Shown here in pieces: positions 19,224-30,434 of a DNA stretch of 64,000 nucleotides. The stretch's first letter is position 1, and each line of letters begins with the position of its first letter. Source of the stretch: an uncultured Alphaproteobacteria bacterium (GTDB lineage: Bacteria > Pseudomonadota > Alphaproteobacteria > CAAGCB01 > CAG-977); the NCBI GenBank assembly GCA_944390195.1, contig CALXOZ010000001.1:154663-218662 (forward strand), read 5' to 3'. Made by a program: the position numbers and the translations under genes. Under the pieces are notes generated by a model. That model made no database searches, was not told the DNA's origin, and was given only the letters and a program-made list of their open reading frames with translations.

Positions 19224-22200
19224 TTAAAAAGACAATGTTAAATCCGCACTCAATTGAGAATATTTTTCCTGTTCGATAAAATGTGAAAATTCAATTGAAA
19301 ATTTTGTTTTATCCGTTTTGTACGCAAGACTGAAATTAATCTCTGAACGGTACTTTTGCTTTTCATCATATAAATCGAAAGTTCCGTTCATGCCGTTCAT
19401 ACCGACTTTTAAAGAATACGGAGATGCAAATTCCCGATAGATCATGCTGGAAAAGTTCAAGTACAACATGTCATTGTCTTCCGTCTTTTTTTGGTAGCCG
19501 ATATTCAAACCCAAACCGCTTTCAACGGACAGAAAGCTGTTACGAGGAATTGTCAAGCTGTAGGCTTTTTCGTCTTCTTTTCCGGATTGATCATACAAAA
19601 TGGCATTTGCTTGGACGCTCGGTTCTATATTTATCCCTTTAAAGTCAAAAGAATATCTGACTTCGTTCTGAAAAGAATAAGAATTTCTTTCAATAAAACC
19701 GTAATAAGAACCGAATTGCCCACTTTGGCGTTTGTAATATTCTTTGGCATAACCGTATTGAATTGAAGAAACGGTTTTTAAACGGTTTTTTTGAAAACTG
19801 ACGGGAAACATAAAACTGACGGATGTGTGTTGTTTTGAACTTTCTTTGTTTGTCGTTTCATAATTGTCGGCAGCCATACCGTAACCGATGTTGATCGACG
19901 GGGAAACATTGATTCCTATCAGTGAAAAGGCTTTTTCGTTTGAAATTTTAGAATTTGCAGCCTCCGATACGTTTGAAAAGCTCCAAACAGGATCCTCTTT
20001 TGTGGCAAAATGAGCGGACATCTGCTGATTAAGCGCAAAATTCAATTTACGCATGGCGGACATATCATGTCGGGTGAAATCTTTAAAAACACTTGTTCCG
20101 GTCAAGCCGTCAAGCGAATCGGAAAAAGCGCTGACAGAATCAATTGACTTTAATATGCTGAAAAAAGATTCATTGTTTTGCAAGGTATAATTCCGTGTCA
20201 GAAAATCTGCAAGAGATCGGCTTGAAACCAAACTGTCGAAAGGTCTCATTGTTAATACGACATCTTTATTATTTTCCGATAAACCGGCATTGAACAAAAC
20301 CGATTTTGATGAAAGTTTTAATTTTGACACATCAGGTGAATCTATTGCGTCTTGGACGGTATAAGATGTTTGAAAACCGTTTTGAACGAAATTTTCAGAA
20401 ATGTTTAAATTTCCGGAAATGTTGTTTGTCGCTTGAAAAACACCGCCTTGTTCTAACGTAACGTTACCGCCGTAAGAATCCAGATTAATACTGTCTGCGC
20501 TGAAAATTCCACTGTTGAGCAAAGTGGCACCATTAAGTTTTATTTCTTCTCCGTTTTCGTTTCCGGATAAGGTTATTACTCCTGTATTATGAACCGTTGC
20601 TCCGACTTCCGCGTAAATGCCGTAAGCTGTTCCGCCAGTTTCCGAATCCGGTGTTATGATATTTCCGTTATTATTGACAGCGGTACGAATGATTTTTATC
20701 GTTCCTTCATTGAAAACCGTTGTTCCTACTGGGGCATACATACCGATAGCTGTTCCCGAAGATAAATTATTAATGATAATTTCTCCGCTATTGATGGCAT
20801 AGTTTCCGGTCGCGTACATACCGACGGATGTTCCAGTTCCCAAGTTTTCCAAAAGGATTGTTGAATTTTCAGGGTTTTGATTGTTTTTTCCATACATACC
20901 GATAGCTGTTCCTGAAACGTTGTCCAAAACAACCCGTCCATGGTTGAAAAGATTTTCTCCGATCAATCCGATGACGGTTCCGGAAGAAAGGTTGTACATG
21001 GCAAGAGAACCTGAAAAATTGGAAACATTTGTCTCGTTTAGTTTTATGCCAACAGCTGTTCCATTTCCTTCATTGGTAATCGTAATCTTGTCTTGAGCTT
21101 CATAAATCATGTCTTTCGCATAGATTCCGTACGCCGTTCCCGTTCCTTGGTTCTTTATGAGGATATCACTTGTTCCGCTCGGGCTTCCGACAGAAGAGTT
21201 TAATGCGTATATCCCATAAACCGTTCCTTCGCTTTCATTATCAATCTCAATGATTCCCGAAGCGTTTGTTCCACTGGAGTTATAAACTGAACCGTTATCT
21301 GTACGCATACCGTAAGCGTTTCCAGAGGAAACATTCCTTATGTAAATTTTCCCTAAAGCCGTTCCATAGCTGCCGGCTGATATTGCATTGTACAGACTTG
21401 CGTATTCGGAATAGATGCCAAAAGCATTGCCGGTACCATTATTTACAATGGAAATGAATCCCTGACTGCTTTTTTCTTTATCATCTGAAAAATATGAACC
21501 TCCGGAAGCGTTGTGTACAGATGAAGATGTTCCGGAATGACTGGAATATAATCCATACGCATCTCCGGAACGGTTATTTTCTATATGGATTGTTCCTTTT
21601 CCGTTATAATAGTTATTGGTTGTGTATTCTATTTCCGAATAAATGCCGAAAACGGAGGACGAAGAGTTTTGTGTCAGTGTAATGTTTCCTATGCCGTCGT
21701 AAGAATTCCCTCCTATATTGAAAGGACTTCCGGAATCAAGATAAATTCCGTAAAAAAAAGAATACGCGTCGTTTGTTTTAACGATGTTTTCGTTATAATA
21801 TCCTGATGGAACCGAAGAATCTTGATTGCTACCGCTTTCGCTATTGCTGCCAATGGCGATTCCCGCAGCAATGATCAATCCGCCAGTAACCAGTTCTGTT
21901 TTTGTCAATCCGAAAAATGTACTTTCTGATGCGGATGTTCTCATAGACCAAGTTGCCACGTCCGATTTATTTAAAACGGCATTCTGGTTAGCTTTCGGTA
22001 TTTGCTTAAAACAAGCGGCGGATTCATTTGCTCCCGCTTTTCTTAAAGTCTGATAGGCTTCTGCGTTGTTTTCCATTGTGGCGCGACATAACGCGGTTAT
22101 TCCGTTCTTATCGGTAACATCAATATTTGAAACATAAAACAAACGATCTTGATTTCCTGTTTTTGCCAAATCGTAAATTTCTTGTTGTGACATGGCAAGA

Positions 22201-22295
22201 CTTGGATTCCCACGTAATATTGTTGCGTTTGCTTGTATTGTCTTTATGGAAAGGAATGAGGATAAAAAAGTGGTATATAAAATAATTCTTTTCAT
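19224..22295 (-). CDS. autotransporter (beta-helix passenger with degenerate G-[TN]-A-[YFV]-G-[IM]-Y repeats; N-terminal ankyrin-like repeat)
   Basis: Signal peptide MKRIILYTTFLSSFLSIKTIQA. Many GTAYGIYA / GNAYGMRT / GTVYGIYAL repeats. C-terminal beta-barrel ends ...LTLSF. DKNGITALCRATMENNAEAYQTLRKAGAN resembles an ANK repeat. Confidence 0.8.
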   Translation of the reverse strand: MKRIILYTTFLSSFLSIKTIQANATILRGNPSLAMSQQEIYDLAKTGNQDRLFYVSNIDVTDKNGITALCRATMENNAEAYQTLRKAGANESAACFKQIPKANQNAVLNKSDVATWSMRTSASESTFFGLTKTELVTGGLIIAAGIAIGSNSESGSNQDSSVPSGYYNENIVKTNDAYSFFYGIYLDSGSPFNIGGNSYDGIGNITLTQNSSSSVFGIYSEIEYTTNNYYNGKGTIHIENNRSGDAYGLYSSHSGTSSSVHNASGGSYFSDDKEKSSQGFISIVNNGTGNAFGIYSEYASLYNAISAGSYGTALGKIYIRNVSSGNAYGMRTDNGSVYNSSGTNASGIIEIDNESEGTVYGIYALNSSVGSPSGTSDILIKNQGTGTAYGIYAKDMIYEAQDKITITNEGNGTAVGIKLNETNVSNFSGSLAMYNLSSGTVIGLIGENLFNHGRVVLDNVSGTAIGMYGKNNQNPENSTILLENLGTGTSVGMYATGNYAINSGEIIINNLSSGTAIGMYAPVGTTVFNEGTIKIIRTAVNNNGNIITPDSETGGTAYGIYAEVGATVHNTGVITLSGNENGEEIKLNGATLLNSGIFSADSINLDSYGGNVTLEQGGVFQATNNISGNLNISENFVQNGFQTSYTVQDAIDSPDVSKLKLSSKSVLFNAGLSENNKDVVLTMRPFDSLVSSRSLADFLTRNYTLQNNESFFSILKSIDSVSAFSDSLDGLTGTSVFKDFTRHDMSAMRKLNFALNQQMSAHFATKEDPVWSFSNVSEAANSKISNEKAFSLIGINVSPSINIGYGMAADNYETTNKESSKQHTSVSFMFPVSFQKNRLKTVSSIQYGYAKEYYKRQSGQFGSYYGFIERNSYSFQNEVRYSFDFKGINIEPSVQANAILYDQSGKEDEKAYSLTIPRNSFLSVESGLGLNIGYQKKTEDNDMLYLNFSSMIYREFASPYSLKVGMNGMNGTFDLYDEKQKYRSEINFSLAYKTDKTKFSIEFSHFIEQEKYSQLSADLTLSF

Positions 22296-23390: not shown

Positions 23391-24242
23391 TCAAATGTTA
23401 TAATCCACAATCGTTTCAGGTTGATTTTTGTATCCGGATGAGATTTTTTTCGCCGCTTCATAAGCGTCTAATTGGCGGGTCATCGCTTCTGGAAACCAAG
23501 AAGCGGCTGGAGATGTTTTTTCCGGTGATATTGCCGGTATTTTAGCGCGTTTATAACCGAAACCATTTGTTTTGACTTCGGAACGAATGTTTTCTGTATT
23601 AATGAAGGATTTCTTTGTTGTTTGATTTAAAGAGGCAGAAGCTTCATTTTCATTATGAGTTTTTATTTTTTCTTTTCGCGTCGGTTTTTCCATAAGTAAA
23701 GATCGGGTTTGATTAATGCCGCGTGTATCTGGCAAAGTAACAGAATTAAATTTTGTTTGATTATTGCGATAGCGAACGACAGAATCCATAGAAAAGATTT
23801 TTTCGTTTTCAGGAGCTTTGGATTTTTCAGATTTTTGAGCTGTTTTTCTGGCAATTGCTTTTTCTTCGGTCATATTGTAAGGAGATCTTGAATCGATTAA
23901 TTTTTTTGAAAAGACGGTTTTTCGGATTTCTTCATTCAACCGGCTTCCGGGTTTGTTATCAGGACTGACAAGAGGGATGACAGTATCTTTTTTAAAAGAA
24001 TGAGGAAGAGTATATTTTTTTTCATTATCGAATAACAGGACAGGGGGTGTTTTCGGGTGATTTGTTTGTATTTCATTTGATGAAAGAGATTTGTCATTTT
24101 CTTGAACGGATTTTTCCGAGTTTTTTTCTTGTGGTTCCTCTGTTAAAAAAACGGGTTTGTCTGCTGTTTTAGAAAAACCGGAAGATTGAAAAACCGCACA
24201 GTCTTTTAAAACAGCCATATCAACTTTAAATGACATATTCAT
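23391..24242 (-). CDS. hypothetical protein (Lys/Ser/Glu-rich, low complexity)
   Basis: 283-aa ORF. No signal peptide and no recognisable domain. Confidence 0.4.
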   Translation of the reverse strand: MNMSFKVDMAVLKDCAVFQSSGFSKTADKPVFLTEEPQEKNSEKSVQENDKSLSSNEIQTNHPKTPPVLLFDNEKKYTLPHSFKKDTVIPLVSPDNKPGSRLNEEIRKTVFSKKLIDSRSPYNMTEEKAIARKTAQKSEKSKAPENEKIFSMDSVVRYRNNQTKFNSVTLPDTRGINQTRSLLMEKPTRKEKIKTHNENEASASLNQTTKKSFINTENIRSEVKTNGFGYKRAKIPAISPEKTSPAASWFPEAMTRQLDAYEAAKKISSGYKNQPETIVDYNI

Positions 24243-24354
24243 AATCTTTCTCCCTCATTTTTATTCAAGGTAATGCAAATTCCATGCCATTTATTTTTAT
24301 TTGAAAAGTGAAGAAGCTATTTTATGATGGAAACAGAAAAACAAGGAGTAAAAT

Positions 24355-24984
24355 ATGCGTCAAATTCTTATTTGTTCCTCTTTGGAAAAACCTCGCCATC
24401 TTCTGGCTTCTGAAATTCAGGATCTGCAGATTGCTTCAGAAGTCTTTGAAACAGATAATTTCCAAGAAACTTTTGAAGCAGCTGAATGTAAAAGGTTTTC
24501 TGCTTTGATCTTTGATGATCCGGATGAGGCTTTTGTTAATACACTGAACCATTGGGAAACAAAAGTTCCGATTTTTTGTTTGCTCGGACAAAACGGCATG
24601 ATTGGAAAAGCGCATATTTTTTTGAAACCTTTTCGTCTGTCTGTTTTTTTGACCTCTTTAATTGCGGCTTTGGCTCAATTTGAACAAAGTGAGGAAGCTT
24701 CTGTTTTGTTGGGACAATGGAAGTTTAATTTCGCAGGTAAGATACTCTCTTTTCAAGACAAGGAAATCCGTCTGACTGAAAAGGAGGCCGCTATTTTGAA
24801 CTTTTTATTTCATCAAAAAGCCTCTGTCGATAAGGAAACACTTCTACGCGAAATATGGGGATATGGGGAAGGTATTTCAACGCATACTTTGGAAACGCAC
24901 ATTTACCGTTTAAGACAAAAATTGGAACAAACAGGAATAACATTTTCAACCGTGAATACGGAAGGATATAAGTTGATTTTTTAA
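24355..24984 (+). CDS. OmpR/PhoB-type winged-helix transcriptional regulator with atypical (degenerate) receiver domain
   Basis: C-terminal LTEKEAAILNFLFHQKASVDKETLLREIWGYGEGISTHTLETHIYRLRQKL is a clear trans_reg_C wHTH. The N-terminal approximately 110 aa is receiver-like but lacks the canonical acidic pocket. Confidence 0.6.
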   Translation: MRQILICSSLEKPRHLLASEIQDLQIASEVFETDNFQETFEAAECKRFSALIFDDPDEAFVNTLNHWETKVPIFCLLGQNGMIGKAHIFLKPFRLSVFLTSLIAALAQFEQSEEASVLLGQWKFNFAGKILSFQDKEIRLTEKEAAILNFLFHQKASVDKETLLREIWGYGEGISTHTLETHIYRLRQKLEQTGITFSTVNTEGYKLIF

Positions 24985-25999
24985 ATGCCGTGTCATTTCT
25001 GTAATAGTTTGTAGCGACTTTGATCGGAAAGAGAAAAACTTTATTGAAAACAAAAGATTTTATTTTTTGATAAACTTTAAACAGTCAGACAATGAACGGT
25101 GATTTAATTAAGCTGAAGGGTGGCGAAAAACATAAAGCTTGTTGTTTTTATAAGTTTTAAAAACAGGGCTTTTCAGGTTTAATGCGCTAAACAAGGTATG
25201 ATGCTTGTCTTTTGTTATATTCATTGAAAATGATTTTGATAAGTTAAGCAAATAAAAATTCCTTGTAATTGCTTATAGCCTTGTACGGATTTTTATTTAT
25301 TATGATTGACCTCTTAGCGGCCTAAAAATATAAAAAAAGATGAATTTTAAAGCATACATCTTGTACGCAAATAGCAGAAACTGTCTTGTGTTATTGCAAA
25401 AAGATGTTTGTTTTGTCGTTTTTGAACCGGAATAAATATTTATGGACTAAAAATATCAAAGTGATGTCTGGAAAAACAGATAAAAAATGTATCATTCGAT
25501 GCGGATCCAGCATATCCCGACAGAAACCGGATCTTATATGTTTTTTTTGAATGAAAAAGCGTTGTAAACAGGAAAGATATTGCGTCATATTAAAACTTAA
25601 AGCGGTAAAACGTTTTTTTATGAATATGAGTGTTTATTGAAACAAAAGAAGATAATGTTTCATGTCGCAGAAGATTAAAGCTTATAAAATCCGTCTATTG
25701 TTGACGTTTGTATAAAATAAACAAAGTTAAGAAAATAGTATGTTTTTGTTTTAAAAAGCGTTTGTCTTCTTTTCTATATTTTTTTAGAAGAAAGGAAAAT
25801 AGCGGGAAATCTGTTGAACTTTTAGGAATTAAGACAAGATATTTTGGTGTTGTCGTAACATAAAGATCAAACTTGTTCCGACAACTTTTATATATTTTTC
25901 GGTTTAACGGATAACAACTGATTTGTTGATTAATCTCATTTTTTCAGATAGCTCTTCATTTTGAAGTTATCAATATTGACAAACTGTCTTTTTTACAAA

Positions 26000-26022
26000 A
26001 CCCCCGCTTTTTGAGCGGGGGT
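26000..26022 (-). terminator. rho-independent terminator downstream of the 26036..27895 gene
   Basis: CCCCCGCtttttgaGCGGGGG hairpin with flanking T/A tracts. Confidence 0.5.
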
Positions 26023-26035
26023 TTGTCAAAGTTTT

Positions 26036-27895
26036 TTATTTAATATAATTGTCTTCACTTTGCATTTGACGTAGGCGTTTCGCTTTTTGTGTTGGCGTTT
26101 CATCCATCTCTCGATCGCGAATTCTGATCTTTAAAGCATCAAACGCGTCTCCGATAGGAATGAATCCATCGCGTGTTTCAAGCAGACTTTTTCCAGCATG
26201 AGCCAACCCGATGGCATTGCCGTTTTCATCAACCAGAATACCTCCCAATGTAACGCTTTGCACGTTTGTGTTTGTCAATATTTCAGCGCCTGCATCACTG
26301 AAGCGATATCCAGCAACTTTTCCTTTTTCCAGAGCTCCTTCAAACCCTCCTTTCATCGGTGTTCCGATTGCGTAGAAAGGTTCTGAAATTTCCGGTAAAT
26401 CCAAACGTAGCGGAATGGGCCAGTTGTATTTGTCGAATTCTGTCGGCGGCATATATAATAAAGCGACATCTTTATCTTTGTTAACACGCAGAACCATTGC
26501 GGTTACGATACGACCGTCCAAAAATTCGACTTTGACGAAAGTCGTTTTTTTAGCAATTTCATAATTCGTCAAAACCAATGAAGGCGCTATCACCAATCCC
26601 GATCCGACTTCCTCTTCGTTTGTAACGGCAACGACGCTTGAACGGATCCGGTATAAACGGATGGGCGAAAGATAACGGAACGGTTTTTGATTGTTGATTG
26701 TAATCCAATCGTCTTCCTTGGAAACCGTAAAACCGGATTCCGGAGAAGGAGCTGAATCTGTTGAATCTGTTGAATCCGTTGAATCTGTGACAGATAAAAT
26801 ATCCGTTTGTGAATAGCGCAAGATTGGAATCATTGGTAACAAGCGCCCTAATATTCCTCTTTCCATTGGCGGATCATAGATCAGGCGGGCATAAAACCTG
26901 TTAACCGTTTCGCCTGATTTTCCTAAACTGTCCTTTGTTTCTTTTGCCGTATCATCACTGTCAATTTTTTCTAAATCGCGATCGCCCCCCGTTACTTTTT
27001 CCAATTCGTCCAAGGTCTTGTCTCGTCCGCGTTCGCTGTAGAAGTGTGTCCGTTTTCTGCGATAAAACGAATTCAGTTTTTTATATTTTTTATGTTCGTA
27101 AGCCAAAGCGTCAAATTCTGCTTTAGCTTTTTCCAAGTCGTATAAATTGGGAACATTGCGCATGGTTTGCATGAAACCGGGCATGCCGATCAAACGTGTT
27201 AAGGCATCTGCAAACGCTTTTTCTATCAAGCGTATTTCTCCGTCCCGAATAGGAGTGGGAACTTCGGCATAACCGTATGTAACGTCCTGCCAATAAAGTT
27301 TTTTATTGAACGGTGTCATAACGCGCCACAACACTTTTATTTCCGCCGATCCGCTACGCAAATGAGAATAGGTTCTGGTGCGCCAGTCATACTGATCACA
27401 AACATTGATAAACAAATCTTTTATTTCCGCCGTGATGACATACCCTGGCAACAAATCGGGAAGCTGAGCACTGATCGAATACGGATAATAAGGGTTATCT
27501 TTGCGTACGATGACCGGGAACAGTTCGTTCATTTCTTCAAAAAAGACATTGTCAAACTTCATATCCCGGCGCATAGCCCGCCCTTCGTTTAAAACAATGT
27601 TTTTTTCTCCCCTTTTACAACCGAAAAGCTTGAAGTTGTATTGTCCGATATTTTTTCCCCATTCTTCCGGCGTTCGATTGCGATTGATCTTAAAATCAAC
27701 ATATTCCAGCTTGATGGGTGCCAAACGGTCATCATATGTGAATAATTGTTCAGCCAGTTCGCCTGTTGCCGAATTGTAAACCGAAGCAGCAATGGATTCG
27801 TTGATAATCATCCGCTTTGTTTCTTTAAAAACAGCAGCCGGCATCTGAATTAAGCACAAAATCAGAAAAATGAATAAAAAATATTTTAATTTCAT
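26036..27895 (-). CDS. secreted protein with C-terminal HtrA/trypsin-fold domain lacking catalytic His and Ser (pseudo-protease), plus an (SDST)n linker
   Basis: Signal peptide MKLKYFLFIFLILCLIQMPAAV. C-terminal GSGLVIAPSLVLTNYEI (His replaced by Glu), DVALL (Asp kept), VTLGGILV in place of GNSGG (Ser replaced by Leu). DSTDSTDSTDS repeat encoded at 26748-26800. Confidence 0.6.
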   Translation of the reverse strand: MKLKYFLFIFLILCLIQMPAAVFKETKRMIINESIAASVYNSATGELAEQLFTYDDRLAPIKLEYVDFKINRNRTPEEWGKNIGQYNFKLFGCKRGEKNIVLNEGRAMRRDMKFDNVFFEEMNELFPVIVRKDNPYYPYSISAQLPDLLPGYVITAEIKDLFINVCDQYDWRTRTYSHLRSGSAEIKVLWRVMTPFNKKLYWQDVTYGYAEVPTPIRDGEIRLIEKAFADALTRLIGMPGFMQTMRNVPNLYDLEKAKAEFDALAYEHKKYKKLNSFYRRKRTHFYSERGRDKTLDELEKVTGGDRDLEKIDSDDTAKETKDSLGKSGETVNRFYARLIYDPPMERGILGRLLPMIPILRYSQTDILSVTDSTDSTDSTDSAPSPESGFTVSKEDDWITINNQKPFRYLSPIRLYRIRSSVVAVTNEEEVGSGLVIAPSLVLTNYEIAKKTTFVKVEFLDGRIVTAMVLRVNKDKDVALLYMPPTEFDKYNWPIPLRLDLPEISEPFYAIGTPMKGGFEGALEKGKVAGYRFSDAGAEILTNTNVQSVTLGGILVDENGNAIGLAHAGKSLLETRDGFIPIGDAFDALKIRIRDREMDETPTQKAKRLRQMQSEDNYIK

Positions 27896-27980
27896 CAGAT
27901 ACCTTATATATAGTGATTCAGTCTATTTTACATAATCAGAAAAACATTAAAAAATGTTTTAGTTTTTATAGGATATCACT

Positions 27981-28709
27981 ATGTATCTGTTACCTGCAAT
28001 TGATTTAAAACAAGGAAAATGCGTCCGTTTGAAACAAGGCATGATGGATCGGGTAACGGTGTTTAACGAAAATCCTGTAAATCAGGCGGAATTTTTCGTT
28101 GAACAAGGGGCAGAATGGATCCATATTGTTGATTTAGACGCCGCTTTTGTCGGGCATCCCGTTAATGAGGACGTCATAAAGAAAATACTTCAAAACGTCA
28201 GTGTCAATATTGAAGTGGGTGGCGGAATCCGGTCGATTGAAACAATTAAAATGTGGCTGGATACGGGAGTTGCCCGCGTCATTTTAGGAACATCCGCCTT
28301 GCGTGATCCCGATCTTGTTAAAAAAGCCTGTCGGGAATTTCCAAACAGGATTGCTCTTGGAATTGATGCTAAAGACGGTTTCGTCGCCGTTCAAGGCTGG
28401 ACGGAGGATTCGCAAGTAACTGCCATCGAACTGGCTCGCCGGTTTGAAAAAGACGGTGTCTGTTGTATTATTTATACGGATATATCTCGGGACGGTGTTT
28501 TAAGTGGACCTAATTTGCAAGCGACATTGAATTTGTCAAAATCGATTTCAATACCGGTCATCGTTTCAGGGGGTGTTTCTTCGTTGGAAGATATTCTCGC
28601 CTGTAAAAAGCATAAAGAGGATAATATTGCTGGCATCATAGCCGGACGAGCTCTTTATGATAATCGTTTTAGCGTTCAACAAGCCGTTCAGTTGTTAAAG
28701 GAAGAATGA
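27981..28709 (+). CDS. hisA: 1-(5-phosphoribosyl)-5-[(5-phosphoribosylamino)methylideneamino]imidazole-4-carboxamide isomerase
   Basis: MYLLPAIDLKQGKCVRLKQG...IHIVDLDAAF...VGGGIRS matches HisA across its full length. Confidence 0.9.
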   Translation: MYLLPAIDLKQGKCVRLKQGMMDRVTVFNENPVNQAEFFVEQGAEWIHIVDLDAAFVGHPVNEDVIKKILQNVSVNIEVGGGIRSIETIKMWLDTGVARVILGTSALRDPDLVKKACREFPNRIALGIDAKDGFVAVQGWTEDSQVTAIELARRFEKDGVCCIIYTDISRDGVLSGPNLQATLNLSKSISIPVIVSGGVSSLEDILACKKHKEDNIAGIIAGRALYDNRFSVQQAVQLLKEE

Positions 28710-29032
28710 TGCCGACATCTGTTTTATTACGTCTGTTTGAAACTGTTGAAAGCCGTAAGGCAGCTGATCCCGCTGTTTCCTATACGGCAAAATTGTTTTC
28801 AAAAGGAACGAAAAGAATTGCTCAAAAAGTCGGTGAGGAAGCCGTTGAAACGGTTATTGCCGCAGTAACGGAAGATCCTGAACACATTATTTCTGAAAGC
28901 GCTGATTTATTATATCATTTATGCGTGTTATGGGCGAATGCGGGGGTTCATCCCGATCAGGTCTTTCGGACATTGGAACAAAGAGAGGGTATTTCAGGCA
29001 TAACTGAAAAAAATTCACGTCCAAAGGAGTAA
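28706..29032 (+). CDS. hisE: phosphoribosyl-ATP pyrophosphatase
   Basis: YTAKLFSKGTKRIAQKVGEEAVETVIAAVTEDPEHIISESADLLYHLCVL is the HisE (PRA-PH) signature. ATGA overlap with hisA. Confidence 0.8.
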   Translation: MMPTSVLLRLFETVESRKAADPAVSYTAKLFSKGTKRIAQKVGEEAVETVIAAVTEDPEHIISESADLLYHLCVLWANAGVHPDQVFRTLEQREGISGITEKNSRPKE

Positions 29033-29639: not shown

Positions 29640-30434
29640 CTACTCTTGGACAAAAACGCTTTTCGGTTGTTGGCAGACGGGGCAAACGTAATCGTCCGGT
29701 AAATCTTTGAACGGTGTTTCTCCATCATAAACATAACCGCATACGGAACAAACCCATTTTTCAGCTTTTGCGGGTGCTTCTTCAGCTTGTGTTTTTTCTT
29801 CCACCTTTTCAAATTCGTCAGCACCTACGCCGCAAACAGGGCAGACATAATCCTCTGGCAGTTCATCGCCTTCGTATTCATAACCGCATACTTTACATAC
29901 CCATTTTGTCATTTTCTTTTCTCCTTTTATTTCTTGGGAACATTTCCCGGTTTTGAAAGCCTCCATGACACGAGGCTTCCATGATTCTTGATACGTCGTG
30001 TAACTTAAAGCCTTTCCTTGACCGTCCAAAGCCTCTACGACTTCACAAAAAAACAAAGTATGAGTTGATAATTGTTTCGATTCCGTTACTTTACAATGCA
30101 AATAAGCGCAAGCATCATCCAAAACAGGAAGCCCCCCCATGAAATGATGAGGAACTTTTTGCCATTTGTCAGCGCAACGGCATGATTGAAAACCGAAATT
30201 TGCAATGATGAAGGGATCTGTCGTTTCAGACAGAACGGACAAAGTAAATTCTTTTGTTTCCTGTATGCATTCCCGCGTCCTCGTCCCCTGATTACAACAA
30301 ATGACAAGGGTTTGAGGTTGAATTGTTGTTTGCATGACGGCATCAACAATACATCCGCCGAACTTTTCATTACATTTAACGCCGATAACGTATAAACCGT
30401 AAGTTAATTTAAAAAAGGCTTTGGTATCAATCAT
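29640..30434 (-). CDS. flavin reductase domain fused to two rubredoxin domains (high-molecular-weight rubredoxin, Hrb-like)
   Basis: N-terminal flavin-reductase-like domain. Two rubredoxin units [13 protein letters not shown]...YVCPVCG and [13 protein letters not shown]...YVCPVCQ. Confidence 0.8.

Follow-up and report, generated by a model that had tools for sequence, protein, structure and literature searches.

The subject of this report is a gene on the minus strand at positions 26036-27895 of the window, by which we mean the whole 64-kb stretch of DNA from an uncultured alphaproteobacterium that was analysed. It is one open reading frame (ORF) of 619 codons plus a stop codon, and its 619-aa product appears to be a two-domain exported pseudo-protease, a reading based on the ORF list, the homologous clusters and orthologues in 14 GTDB species. 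Its C-terminal domain has the S1C/HtrA fold without the catalytic His, the catalytic Ser and the oxyanion-hole Gly. Homology to an active family, the lost catalytic residues and purifying selection together identify the protein, at the level of sequence, as a pseudo-protease. We propose, with a probability of roughly 0.6, that it is a catalytically dead, Sec-exported envelope protein, which would descend from a two-domain alphaproteobacterial lipoprotein serine protease and act as a non-catalytic tethered binder.

The S1C/HtrA-fold pseudo-protease domain covers residues 386-600 (26096-26740, minus strand, as for all features of the gene given below). The Pfam profile PF13365 (Trypsin_2) matches residues 431-564 over its full length (profile positions 1-144) with an E-value of 7.6e-14 and 53.1 bits, exceeding the gathering threshold of 27.6. 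The NCBIfam matches, to DegP, DegS and MarP models, are weaker: the HtrA/Do model TIGR02037 scores 29.6 bits against a cut-off of 416.2, and the DegS, DegQ and DegP models score 12-21 bits against cut-offs of 408-756, so that none of these thresholds is reached. In a sequence search of the PDB the best matches were the S1C-like domain of RsgI9 (7sjy, 24% identity), plant Deg1, DegP and DegQ. An AlphaFold model built from a 72-sequence alignment has a mean predicted local distance difference test score (pLDDT) of 79, with residues 389-600 mostly above 90; this is the structure prediction that an earlier note on this DNA had called for, and it displays the S1C/HtrA fold. A Foldseek search with the C-terminal domain of the model retrieved RsgI9, Deg1, Rv0983, MucD and DegS-deltaPDZ (E 4e-11 to 1e-9, target template-modelling (TM) score about 0.7); the match to DegS-deltaPDZ (E about 1e-10, target TM about 0.7) places the domain in the chymotrypsin-like double β-barrel fold. 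The scaffold motifs are kept, namely GSG at the first strand, DVALL, the G-T-P-x-G loop and the GxxxG strand. The claim of the earlier note that the C-terminus is an HtrA-fold domain is therefore borne out both by the Trypsin_2 profile alignment and by Foldseek with the model (about 1e-11).

The active site of this domain has been dismantled. In alignments to Deg1 and to active relatives of the same architecture, the position of the catalytic His (chymotrypsin 57) is occupied by Glu446 (26558-26560): the window protein reads LTNYEI where the active relatives have TNxHVV, and vltnyEi aligns with ivtnyHv of Deg1. Close homologues have E, D, S or R at this position. The catalytic Asp (chymotrypsin 102) is retained as Asp476 (26468-26470), in the motif KDVALL as against RDVAL in the active relatives, with kDvall aligned to kDvavl of Deg1, and it is invariant in the close family. 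At the third site the GNSGG of Deg1 and the active relatives corresponds to VTLGG: an ungapped alignment of IQPGNSGGPLL with VQSVTLGGILV puts Val548-Thr549-Leu550 (26246-26254) in place of Gly-Asn-Ser. Here the Ser has become Leu550, which is invariant across the close family, and the oxyanion-hole Gly (the first Gly of GNSGG) has become Val548. Of the triad of the HtrA/Do S1C peptidases only Asp476 is thus kept, with Glu446 and Leu550 at the His and Ser positions, exactly the substitutions that the earlier note had read from the sequence.

The remaining part of the protein provides the means of tracing its relatives, as it contains a conserved N-terminal domain (N-domain, residues 55-250; 27146-27733). 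An exhaustive HMMER search with this domain against 1.84 billion cluster representatives found 89 representative proteins carrying it, and 58 of the 72 examined also carry Trypsin_2; a profile of the domain run against a 5.8-billion-protein set returned just five fragments and added nothing. About 60 diverse clusters share the two-domain architecture, and those that carry a name are all from Alphaproteobacteria. Two groups are apparent: the first comprises proteins of about 430-460 aa with a lipobox (L-x-A/G-C), a short linker and intact TNxHVV, RDVAL and GNSGG motifs. Members of the second are longer, at 529-1176 aa; they have lost the catalytic machinery, carry long linkers particular to each lineage and typically show the motifs LTSADL, KNxAL and xT[LVI]GG. 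A neighbour-joining tree of 61 two-domain sequences, computed from the N-domain only and hence independent of the catalytic residues, splits 28 active-type proteins from one monophyletic dead clade of 33 that includes the window protein; this is a simple distance tree without support values. The triad is intact in 26 of the 28 active-type proteins, while P0169 and P0187 lost it independently.

Across the dead clade, represented by clusters at 50% identity, position 57 is never His and is acidic in 23/33; position 102 is Asn in 25/33 and Asp in 5/33; the oxyanion-hole Gly is lost in 33/33; and Ser195 is kept in just two. A further residue, His566 (26198-26200), is specific to this clade, being His in 26/33 dead-clade representatives (Arg, Lys, Asn, Gln or Ser in the other 7/33) against 0/28 of the active clade. 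We take its position to be that of chymotrypsin Ser214 (GINTA versus GIVSW). In chymotrypsin, Ser214 contacts Asp102, and residues 57, 102 and 214 are neighbours in the fold. A single ancient loss of catalysis in the dead clade is well indicated by these sequences, though not proven. The gain of His at 214 together with the dead-clade substitutions indicates that the former active site was reshaped and has since been maintained in the altered form.

Such a remodelled site could in principle still be a hydrolase that uses non-canonical residues, with Thr549 or another Ser or Thr acting alongside His566 and Asp476. Thr or Ser at 549 and His566 are indeed widely conserved in the dead clade, and Asp476 does not vary in the close family. 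We nevertheless hold this to be very improbable. Position 194, that of Thr549, does not point into the catalytic centre in the chymotrypsin fold. Moreover, Val or another bulky residue has taken the place of the oxyanion-hole Gly, most dead-clade members carry Asn at 102, and in seven of them a residue other than His stands at 566. MamO, an alphaproteobacterial HtrA-type pseudo-protease, is inactive even with a Thr at the nucleophile position (PMC4794232).

A different proposal is that the repurposed site binds a metal or small ligand via Glu446, Asp476 and His566, and that this binding is the function. An acidic-acidic-His cluster did arise in the dead clade, at positions that lie side by side in the fold, and there is a precedent in the metal binding of MamO (PMC4794232). 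However, position 57 is E, D, S or R even among close orthologues, most of the clade carries Asn at 102, and a His, Arg or Lys beside Asp or Asn may be mere structural compensation. The metal site of MamO also lies elsewhere on the fold (PMC4794232). We regard metal or small-ligand binding as the function of the site as distinctly improbable.

The close family of the window protein comprises more than 120 clusters at 90% identity, which are 57-99% identical to the query and come from the 14 GTDB species, all of them uncultured Alphaproteobacteria or Rhodospirillales-like metagenome-assembled genomes (MAGs) from human gut, rumen and similar samples; three cluster look-ups in databases returned generic names only and no cultured organism. 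Mean identity across species is 81% for the N-domain, 82% for the protease-like domain, 57% for the helix that follows the N-domain and 25% for the linker. The ratio of non-synonymous to synonymous substitution rates (dN/dS), estimated by the Nei-Gojobori method among species orthologues, is 0.01-0.09 for the dead protease domain, 0.00-0.12 for the N-domain and 0.08-0.6 for the linker. Both folded domains are strongly constrained, and the linker is free to change in length. Given the dN/dS of the dead domain, the protein is functional rather than decaying, and the label of pseudo-protease that the earlier note gave it was apt. The lost catalytic residues by themselves might be expected of a former protease gene decaying without function, but the 619-codon ORF is intact in every species and the dead clade holds 33 clusters; this explanation is refuted by the constraint on the dead domain and the extent of the clade, and its likelihood is negligible.

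The chromosomal setting of the gene bears on how catalysis was lost. The arrangement seen in the window, with the gene divergent from hisA-hisE-HIT, recurs in each of the 14 related species. The active-clade gene for P0180 (locus L025) is divergent from hisB-hisH-hisA-hisF...hisE and lies slightly upstream of hslV-hslU, and the dead-clade genes for P0132 (locus L018) and P0129 (locus L026) lie one to three genes from hslVU. Away from the his/hslVU neighbourhood the gene contexts vary; other active members are found between ychF and a dienelactone hydrolase gene. A further family gene, split in two, lies between hisB and hslVU (L022). As active and dead members share the his/hslVU neighbourhood, it is suggested that the dead genes are positional orthologues of the active lipoprotein protease and that catalysis disappeared at the original locus rather than in a redundant second copy. 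The his operon-hslVU locus recurs as the family home in distant Alphaproteobacteria, for active and dead forms alike (L025, 1-10800; L022, 1-4726; L026, 3271-9487; window, 26036-29032), and in the window lineage the his operon appears to be reduced to hisA-hisE at the locus of the gene. The split gene (L022, 1472-2725, an environmental contig) consists of a 250-aa N-domain ORF and a 118-aa trypsin fragment and has probably been frameshifted or degraded; similar artefacts, and not true single-domain proteins, may account for some of the representatives that are short and seem to have an N-domain only (239-305 aa).

This setting is pertinent to another explanation, namely that the dead domain is an allosteric partner, which pairs with or activates a competent S1C protease encoded elsewhere in the genome. 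HtrA-family protease domains commonly oligomerise, which would favour such pairing, and a precedent exists in MamO, which promotes MamE-dependent proteolysis (PMC4794232). On the other hand, no second GNSGG-type trypsin-like protease gene was found elsewhere in the 64-kb window, and the presence of the dead gene at the same his/hslVU locus as its active relatives suggests a replacement in place that left no active twin. We therefore consider an allosteric role unlikely, though not to the same degree as a residual hydrolase.

The architecture upstream of the dead domain also bears on the tethered-binder reading. The region that the earlier note had left as about 380 aa of unknown sequence can be resolved into a signal sequence (residues 1-23), the N-domain (about 55-250), a helix (251-302) and a linker (303-385). 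The signal sequence (27827-27895), read by eye, consists of MKLK, a hydrophobic stretch of about 14 aa and PAAVF, and has a pLDDT of 45-60 in the AlphaFold model. Distant relatives have a canonical LxAC or LxGC lipobox at the Cys that aligns with Cys14 of the window protein. Cys14 itself stands in L-I-L-C, with Leu at -1, which departs from the consensus [LVI][ASTVI][GAS]C, and in close homologues the residue preceding the aligned Cys is L, F or Y; LILC not being a lipobox, the window protein was not classed as a lipoprotein. The cleavage site seen in homologues as VFG|A or VSG|K reads VFK|E here. With the lipobox consensus lost and this site altered, the N-terminus may remain in place and anchor the protein in the membrane. 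Export is borne out, but the earlier suggestion that the protein is secreted has no support: it has only a Sec-type N-terminus, and nothing points to passage beyond the outer membrane.

The N-domain is an α/β sandwich with three long β-hairpin strands and a packing helix. Its Cys93, Cys166, Trp190 and Gly208 are invariant, and the two cysteines could plausibly form a periplasmic disulfide. Modelled alone with AlphaFold2 it reaches a pLDDT of 90 and a predicted TM score of 0.86, and in the whole-protein model it is mostly above 90. No Pfam family was matched when 45 N-domains were scanned with E up to 10, and a PDB profile search with the domain gave no sequence relative. Foldseek returned weak matches to CsgG, DUF330/XCC0632, Cj1090c, LptE, PelC, HpaA and FlgT (E 5e-5 to 4e-3). 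This likeness to periplasm-facing outer-membrane lipoproteins is to be read as a fold-class hint from the model and not as membership of any of these families.

Next comes a long single helix, residues 251-302 (26990-27145), assigned by DSSP in the model (pLDDT 76-93) and moderately conserved. It leads into a disordered, hypervariable linker, residues 303-385 (26741-26989), with pLDDT below 50 over 303-381. Among orthologues the linker ranges from 83 to 216 aa and retains one semi-conserved motif, FYARL..PP.ERG..GR.LP..P, at residues 334-358. Residues 370-381 (26753-26788) form a (DST)x4 repeat, TDSTDSTDSTDS, which Tandem Repeats Finder reports with a period of 9 bp, 4.0 copies and 92% matches; the repeat, which had been described as (SDST)n, is hence a 9-bp tandem repeat encoding DST. 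It has three copies in P0002, a 99%-identical strain variant, and is absent from other species, so that, judged from these sequences, it is a species-specific polymorphic repeat in a hypervariable linker and not a family feature. The longest dead-clade protein, P0132 (1176 aa; L018, 6001-9531), has a linker of about 700 aa (residues ~330-900) that is Cys-rich and carries repeated G-[RK]-[FY]-[VI]-[DE]-G-[KR]-F-x-E motifs. As it bears little resemblance to the linker of the window protein, linkers appear to have been reinvented in each lineage.

Only 19 residues follow the protease-like domain, and no PDZ domain is matched by Pfam at E up to 10. These residues, 601-619 (ETPTQKAKRLRQMQSEDNYIK), together with the stop codon (26036-26095), constitute a C-terminal basic helix and tail, with the helix modelled over 601-615; in this part of the protein the close family shows no variation at E599, T600, P601, A605, L608 and K619.

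Taken together with the dead active site, this layout suggests how a tethered binder might work. After export to the periplasm the N-domain would hold the protein at or near the outer membrane, by anchoring or by assembly, a role proposed because of its CsgG/LptE/PelC-class likeness. The helix and the flexible linker would let the dead protease domain reach out, and the preserved β-barrel cleft of the latter could accommodate a small ligand, a peptide or an unfolded protein, which would be bound without being cleaved. The cleft would now be lined by Glu/Asp57, Asp/Asn102, Thr194 and the newly fixed His214. The protein might accordingly serve as a tethered holdase, an adaptor or a sensor in the cell envelope.

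Several observations weigh against this proposal. The replacement of His57 varies within the close family, which speaks against a strict new active or metal-binding site that includes this position. With neither a canonical lipobox nor a clean signal-peptidase site, both the cleavage of the signal sequence and lipid anchoring are uncertain on the sequence. The Foldseek matches of the N-domain have TM scores of just 0.3-0.4 with root-mean-square deviations of about 10 Å. The Cys93-Cys166 disulfide and the E446/D476/H566 cluster both derive from knowledge of the fold. Finally, the neighbourhood comparison revealed no ligand, partner or operon neighbour conserved across the clades.

The earlier note had instead seen in the protein a candidate host-interaction factor; on such a reading it would leave the cell and, as a decoy, bind host proteins or protease inhibitors in the gut. 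All close homologues do come from gut or rumen MAGs, and the linker is variable and rich in repeats. Dead trypsin-fold proteins are also known to be able to act as binders. Yet the only export signal is a Sec-type N-terminus, and the protein has lipoprotein ancestry with an N-domain like that of periplasmic lipoproteins. Both folded domains evolve very slowly, at a dN/dS of at most about 0.1, without the diversification usual in host-facing proteins. The gene is a core one, held in synteny beside hisA/hisE in 14 species in a housekeeping neighbourhood with no adjacent secretion-system genes. The gut and rumen association may simply reflect the lineage, nothing points to a host target, and the suggestion of a host factor is unsupported and seems to us distinctly improbable.

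A comparison with known systems helps to place the tethered-binder reading. With HtrA, DegP, DegQ and DegS (MEROPS S1C, Trypsin_2) the window protein has in common the chymotrypsin-fold domain and export to the cell envelope; it differs from them in lacking the His, the Ser, the oxyanion-hole Gly and the PDZ domain, and in having, ahead of the protease-like domain, a long linker and a lipoprotein-like domain that is unrelated to these enzymes. Its true relatives are the alphaproteobacterial lipoprotein S1C proteases of about 430-460 aa (P0162, P0180, P0186), with which both domains are homologous and in the same order. These are annotated as 'S1-C subfamily serine protease' or 'serine protease Do' and are uncharacterised. 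Relative to them, the clade of the window protein lost catalysis and lengthened the linker, and its own subfamily also lost the lipobox consensus.

An analogy of role exists with MamO/LimO of magnetotactic Alphaproteobacteria, where a bacterial HtrA-type domain on the envelope side has likewise been kept for a non-catalytic role. MamO keeps the His and Asp with Thr for Ser and is fused to a TauE transporter; its gene belongs to the magnetosome island, a di-His motif on its surface is the site of metal binding, and a duplication route has been proposed for its origin (PMC4794232). The window protein shares neither the fusion, the island setting nor the di-His site: Pfam finds no TauE or other domain in it besides Trypsin_2, its gene neighbours are hisA/hisE/HIT and an OmpR-like gene, and the loss of catalysis appears to have taken place without the duplication proposed for MamO. 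A second analogue is the S1C-like sensor domain of RsgI9 from Clostridium thermocellum (7sjy), the best PDB match by both sequence and structure and an instance of the S1C fold as an extracytoplasmic non-catalytic binder. This peptidase-like sensor domain has been described as cellulose-binding (PMC12203970). RsgI9 differs, however, in architecture and lineage, being an anti-sigma factor of a Gram-positive bacterium that also contains a transmembrane helix and an NTF2 domain: by Pfam the window protein has no anti-sigma, transmembrane or NTF2 part, and the Foldseek match extends over only about 190 residues of the S1C part. As far as the sequences indicate, the family is homologous to neither MamO/LimO nor RsgI9 beyond the shared fold and has its own unannotated N-domain and architecture. 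For the N-domain, the comparison is with CsgG, LptE, PelC and DUF330 (PqiC-like): the model appears to share the α/β sandwich class and the distant family members are lipoproteins, as opposed to which the TM scores are low (0.3-0.4), sequence similarity and Pfam matches are absent and no transport-system genes lie nearby.

As for the signals flanking the gene, a weak AAGG ribosome-binding site lies 8 nt 5' of the ATG, and a GC-rich hairpin, AAACCCCCGC...GCGGGGGTTT (25998-26024, minus strand), begins 12 nt past the stop codon. The hairpin occurs once in the window, where chance would give 0 matches, and is probably an intrinsic terminator. The sole Rfam match over 24000-28500 was a sub-threshold Leu_leader on this hairpin, which, being below the Rfam threshold, we regard as due to chance. 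A 92-aa antisense ORF inside the gene (27501-27779, plus strand) is 76-84% 'conserved' by BLAST against related loci; it was rejected as a separate gene, being the shadow of the strongly conserved sense frame.

Downstream, the gene is convergent with one for a 209-aa protein (24355-24984, plus strand) whose residues 136-207 form a winged-helix DNA-binding domain of the OmpR type, whereas no receiver domain could be detected in the 130 residues at its N-terminus. This neighbour is syntenic, at 58-64% identity, in at least 12 of the 14 related species and could be an atypical or orphan response regulator. As the two genes are convergent and the arrangement is conserved only in the closely related lineage, we claim no functional link between them. 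They are separated in the window by an AT-rich, ORF-poor spacer of about 1050 bp (24985-26035), which contains short AT-rich repeats only and no Rfam family above threshold; since at least 12 of the 14 relatives lack such a gap, the 3' ends of the pair touching or overlapping there, we consider the spacer a lineage-specific insertion. Beyond the OmpR-like gene lies a gene for a 283-aa Lys/Ser/Asn-rich hypothetical protein without a Pfam match (23391-24242, minus strand), which is 39-44% identical between species as against 60-90% for its neighbours and is hence a fast-evolving syntenic gene; it has no relationship to the hypothetical gene that lies downstream of the family gene in a dead-clade relative. 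A 1023-aa ORF at 19224-22295 (minus strand) matches no Pfam family at E up to 0.001. On the other side, the gene at 29640-30434 (minus strand) combines a flavin-reductase-like domain with two rubredoxin-type zinc-ribbon domains and is conserved in related genomes; this fusion suggests an anaerobic or microaerophilic lifestyle.

S1C/HtrA-fold pseudo-proteases are already known in bacteria from MamO/LimO and RsgI9, and a specialist would not be very surprised by the present case. As these bacteria are uncultured inhabitants of the gut and rumen and characterised pseudo-proteases of the fold already exist, the practical importance is modest. What this case offers is a well-resolved conversion of an enzyme to a binder together with a correction of annotation: databases label the whole family 'serine protease' or 'trypsin-like peptidase', and for the 33-cluster dead clade this activity label is, from the residues found, almost certainly wrong. 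More speculatively, in an old, monophyletic lineage of envelope proteins of host-associated Alphaproteobacteria a lipoprotein protease might have been converted in place, without an active twin, to a tethered receptor, whose rebuilt site (Asp/Glu57, Asp/Asn102, His214) would bind a specific ligand or metal and whose expandable disordered linker (about 80 to more than 700 aa) would span the periplasm from a new outer-membrane-lipoprotein-like anchor. This fuller scheme is unlikely; if true, it would represent a previously undescribed kind of periplasm-spanning sensor or adaptor. With the family there also emerges a domain of about 200 aa, well folded and so far unannotated, that is found in common among envelope proteins of uncultured Alphaproteobacteria. 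The family is moreover a clean natural experiment in the passage from enzyme to non-enzyme: active and dead forms share both domains, and several of them the same chromosomal neighbourhood, and the dead form has gained a His by the old Asp and lengthened its linker.

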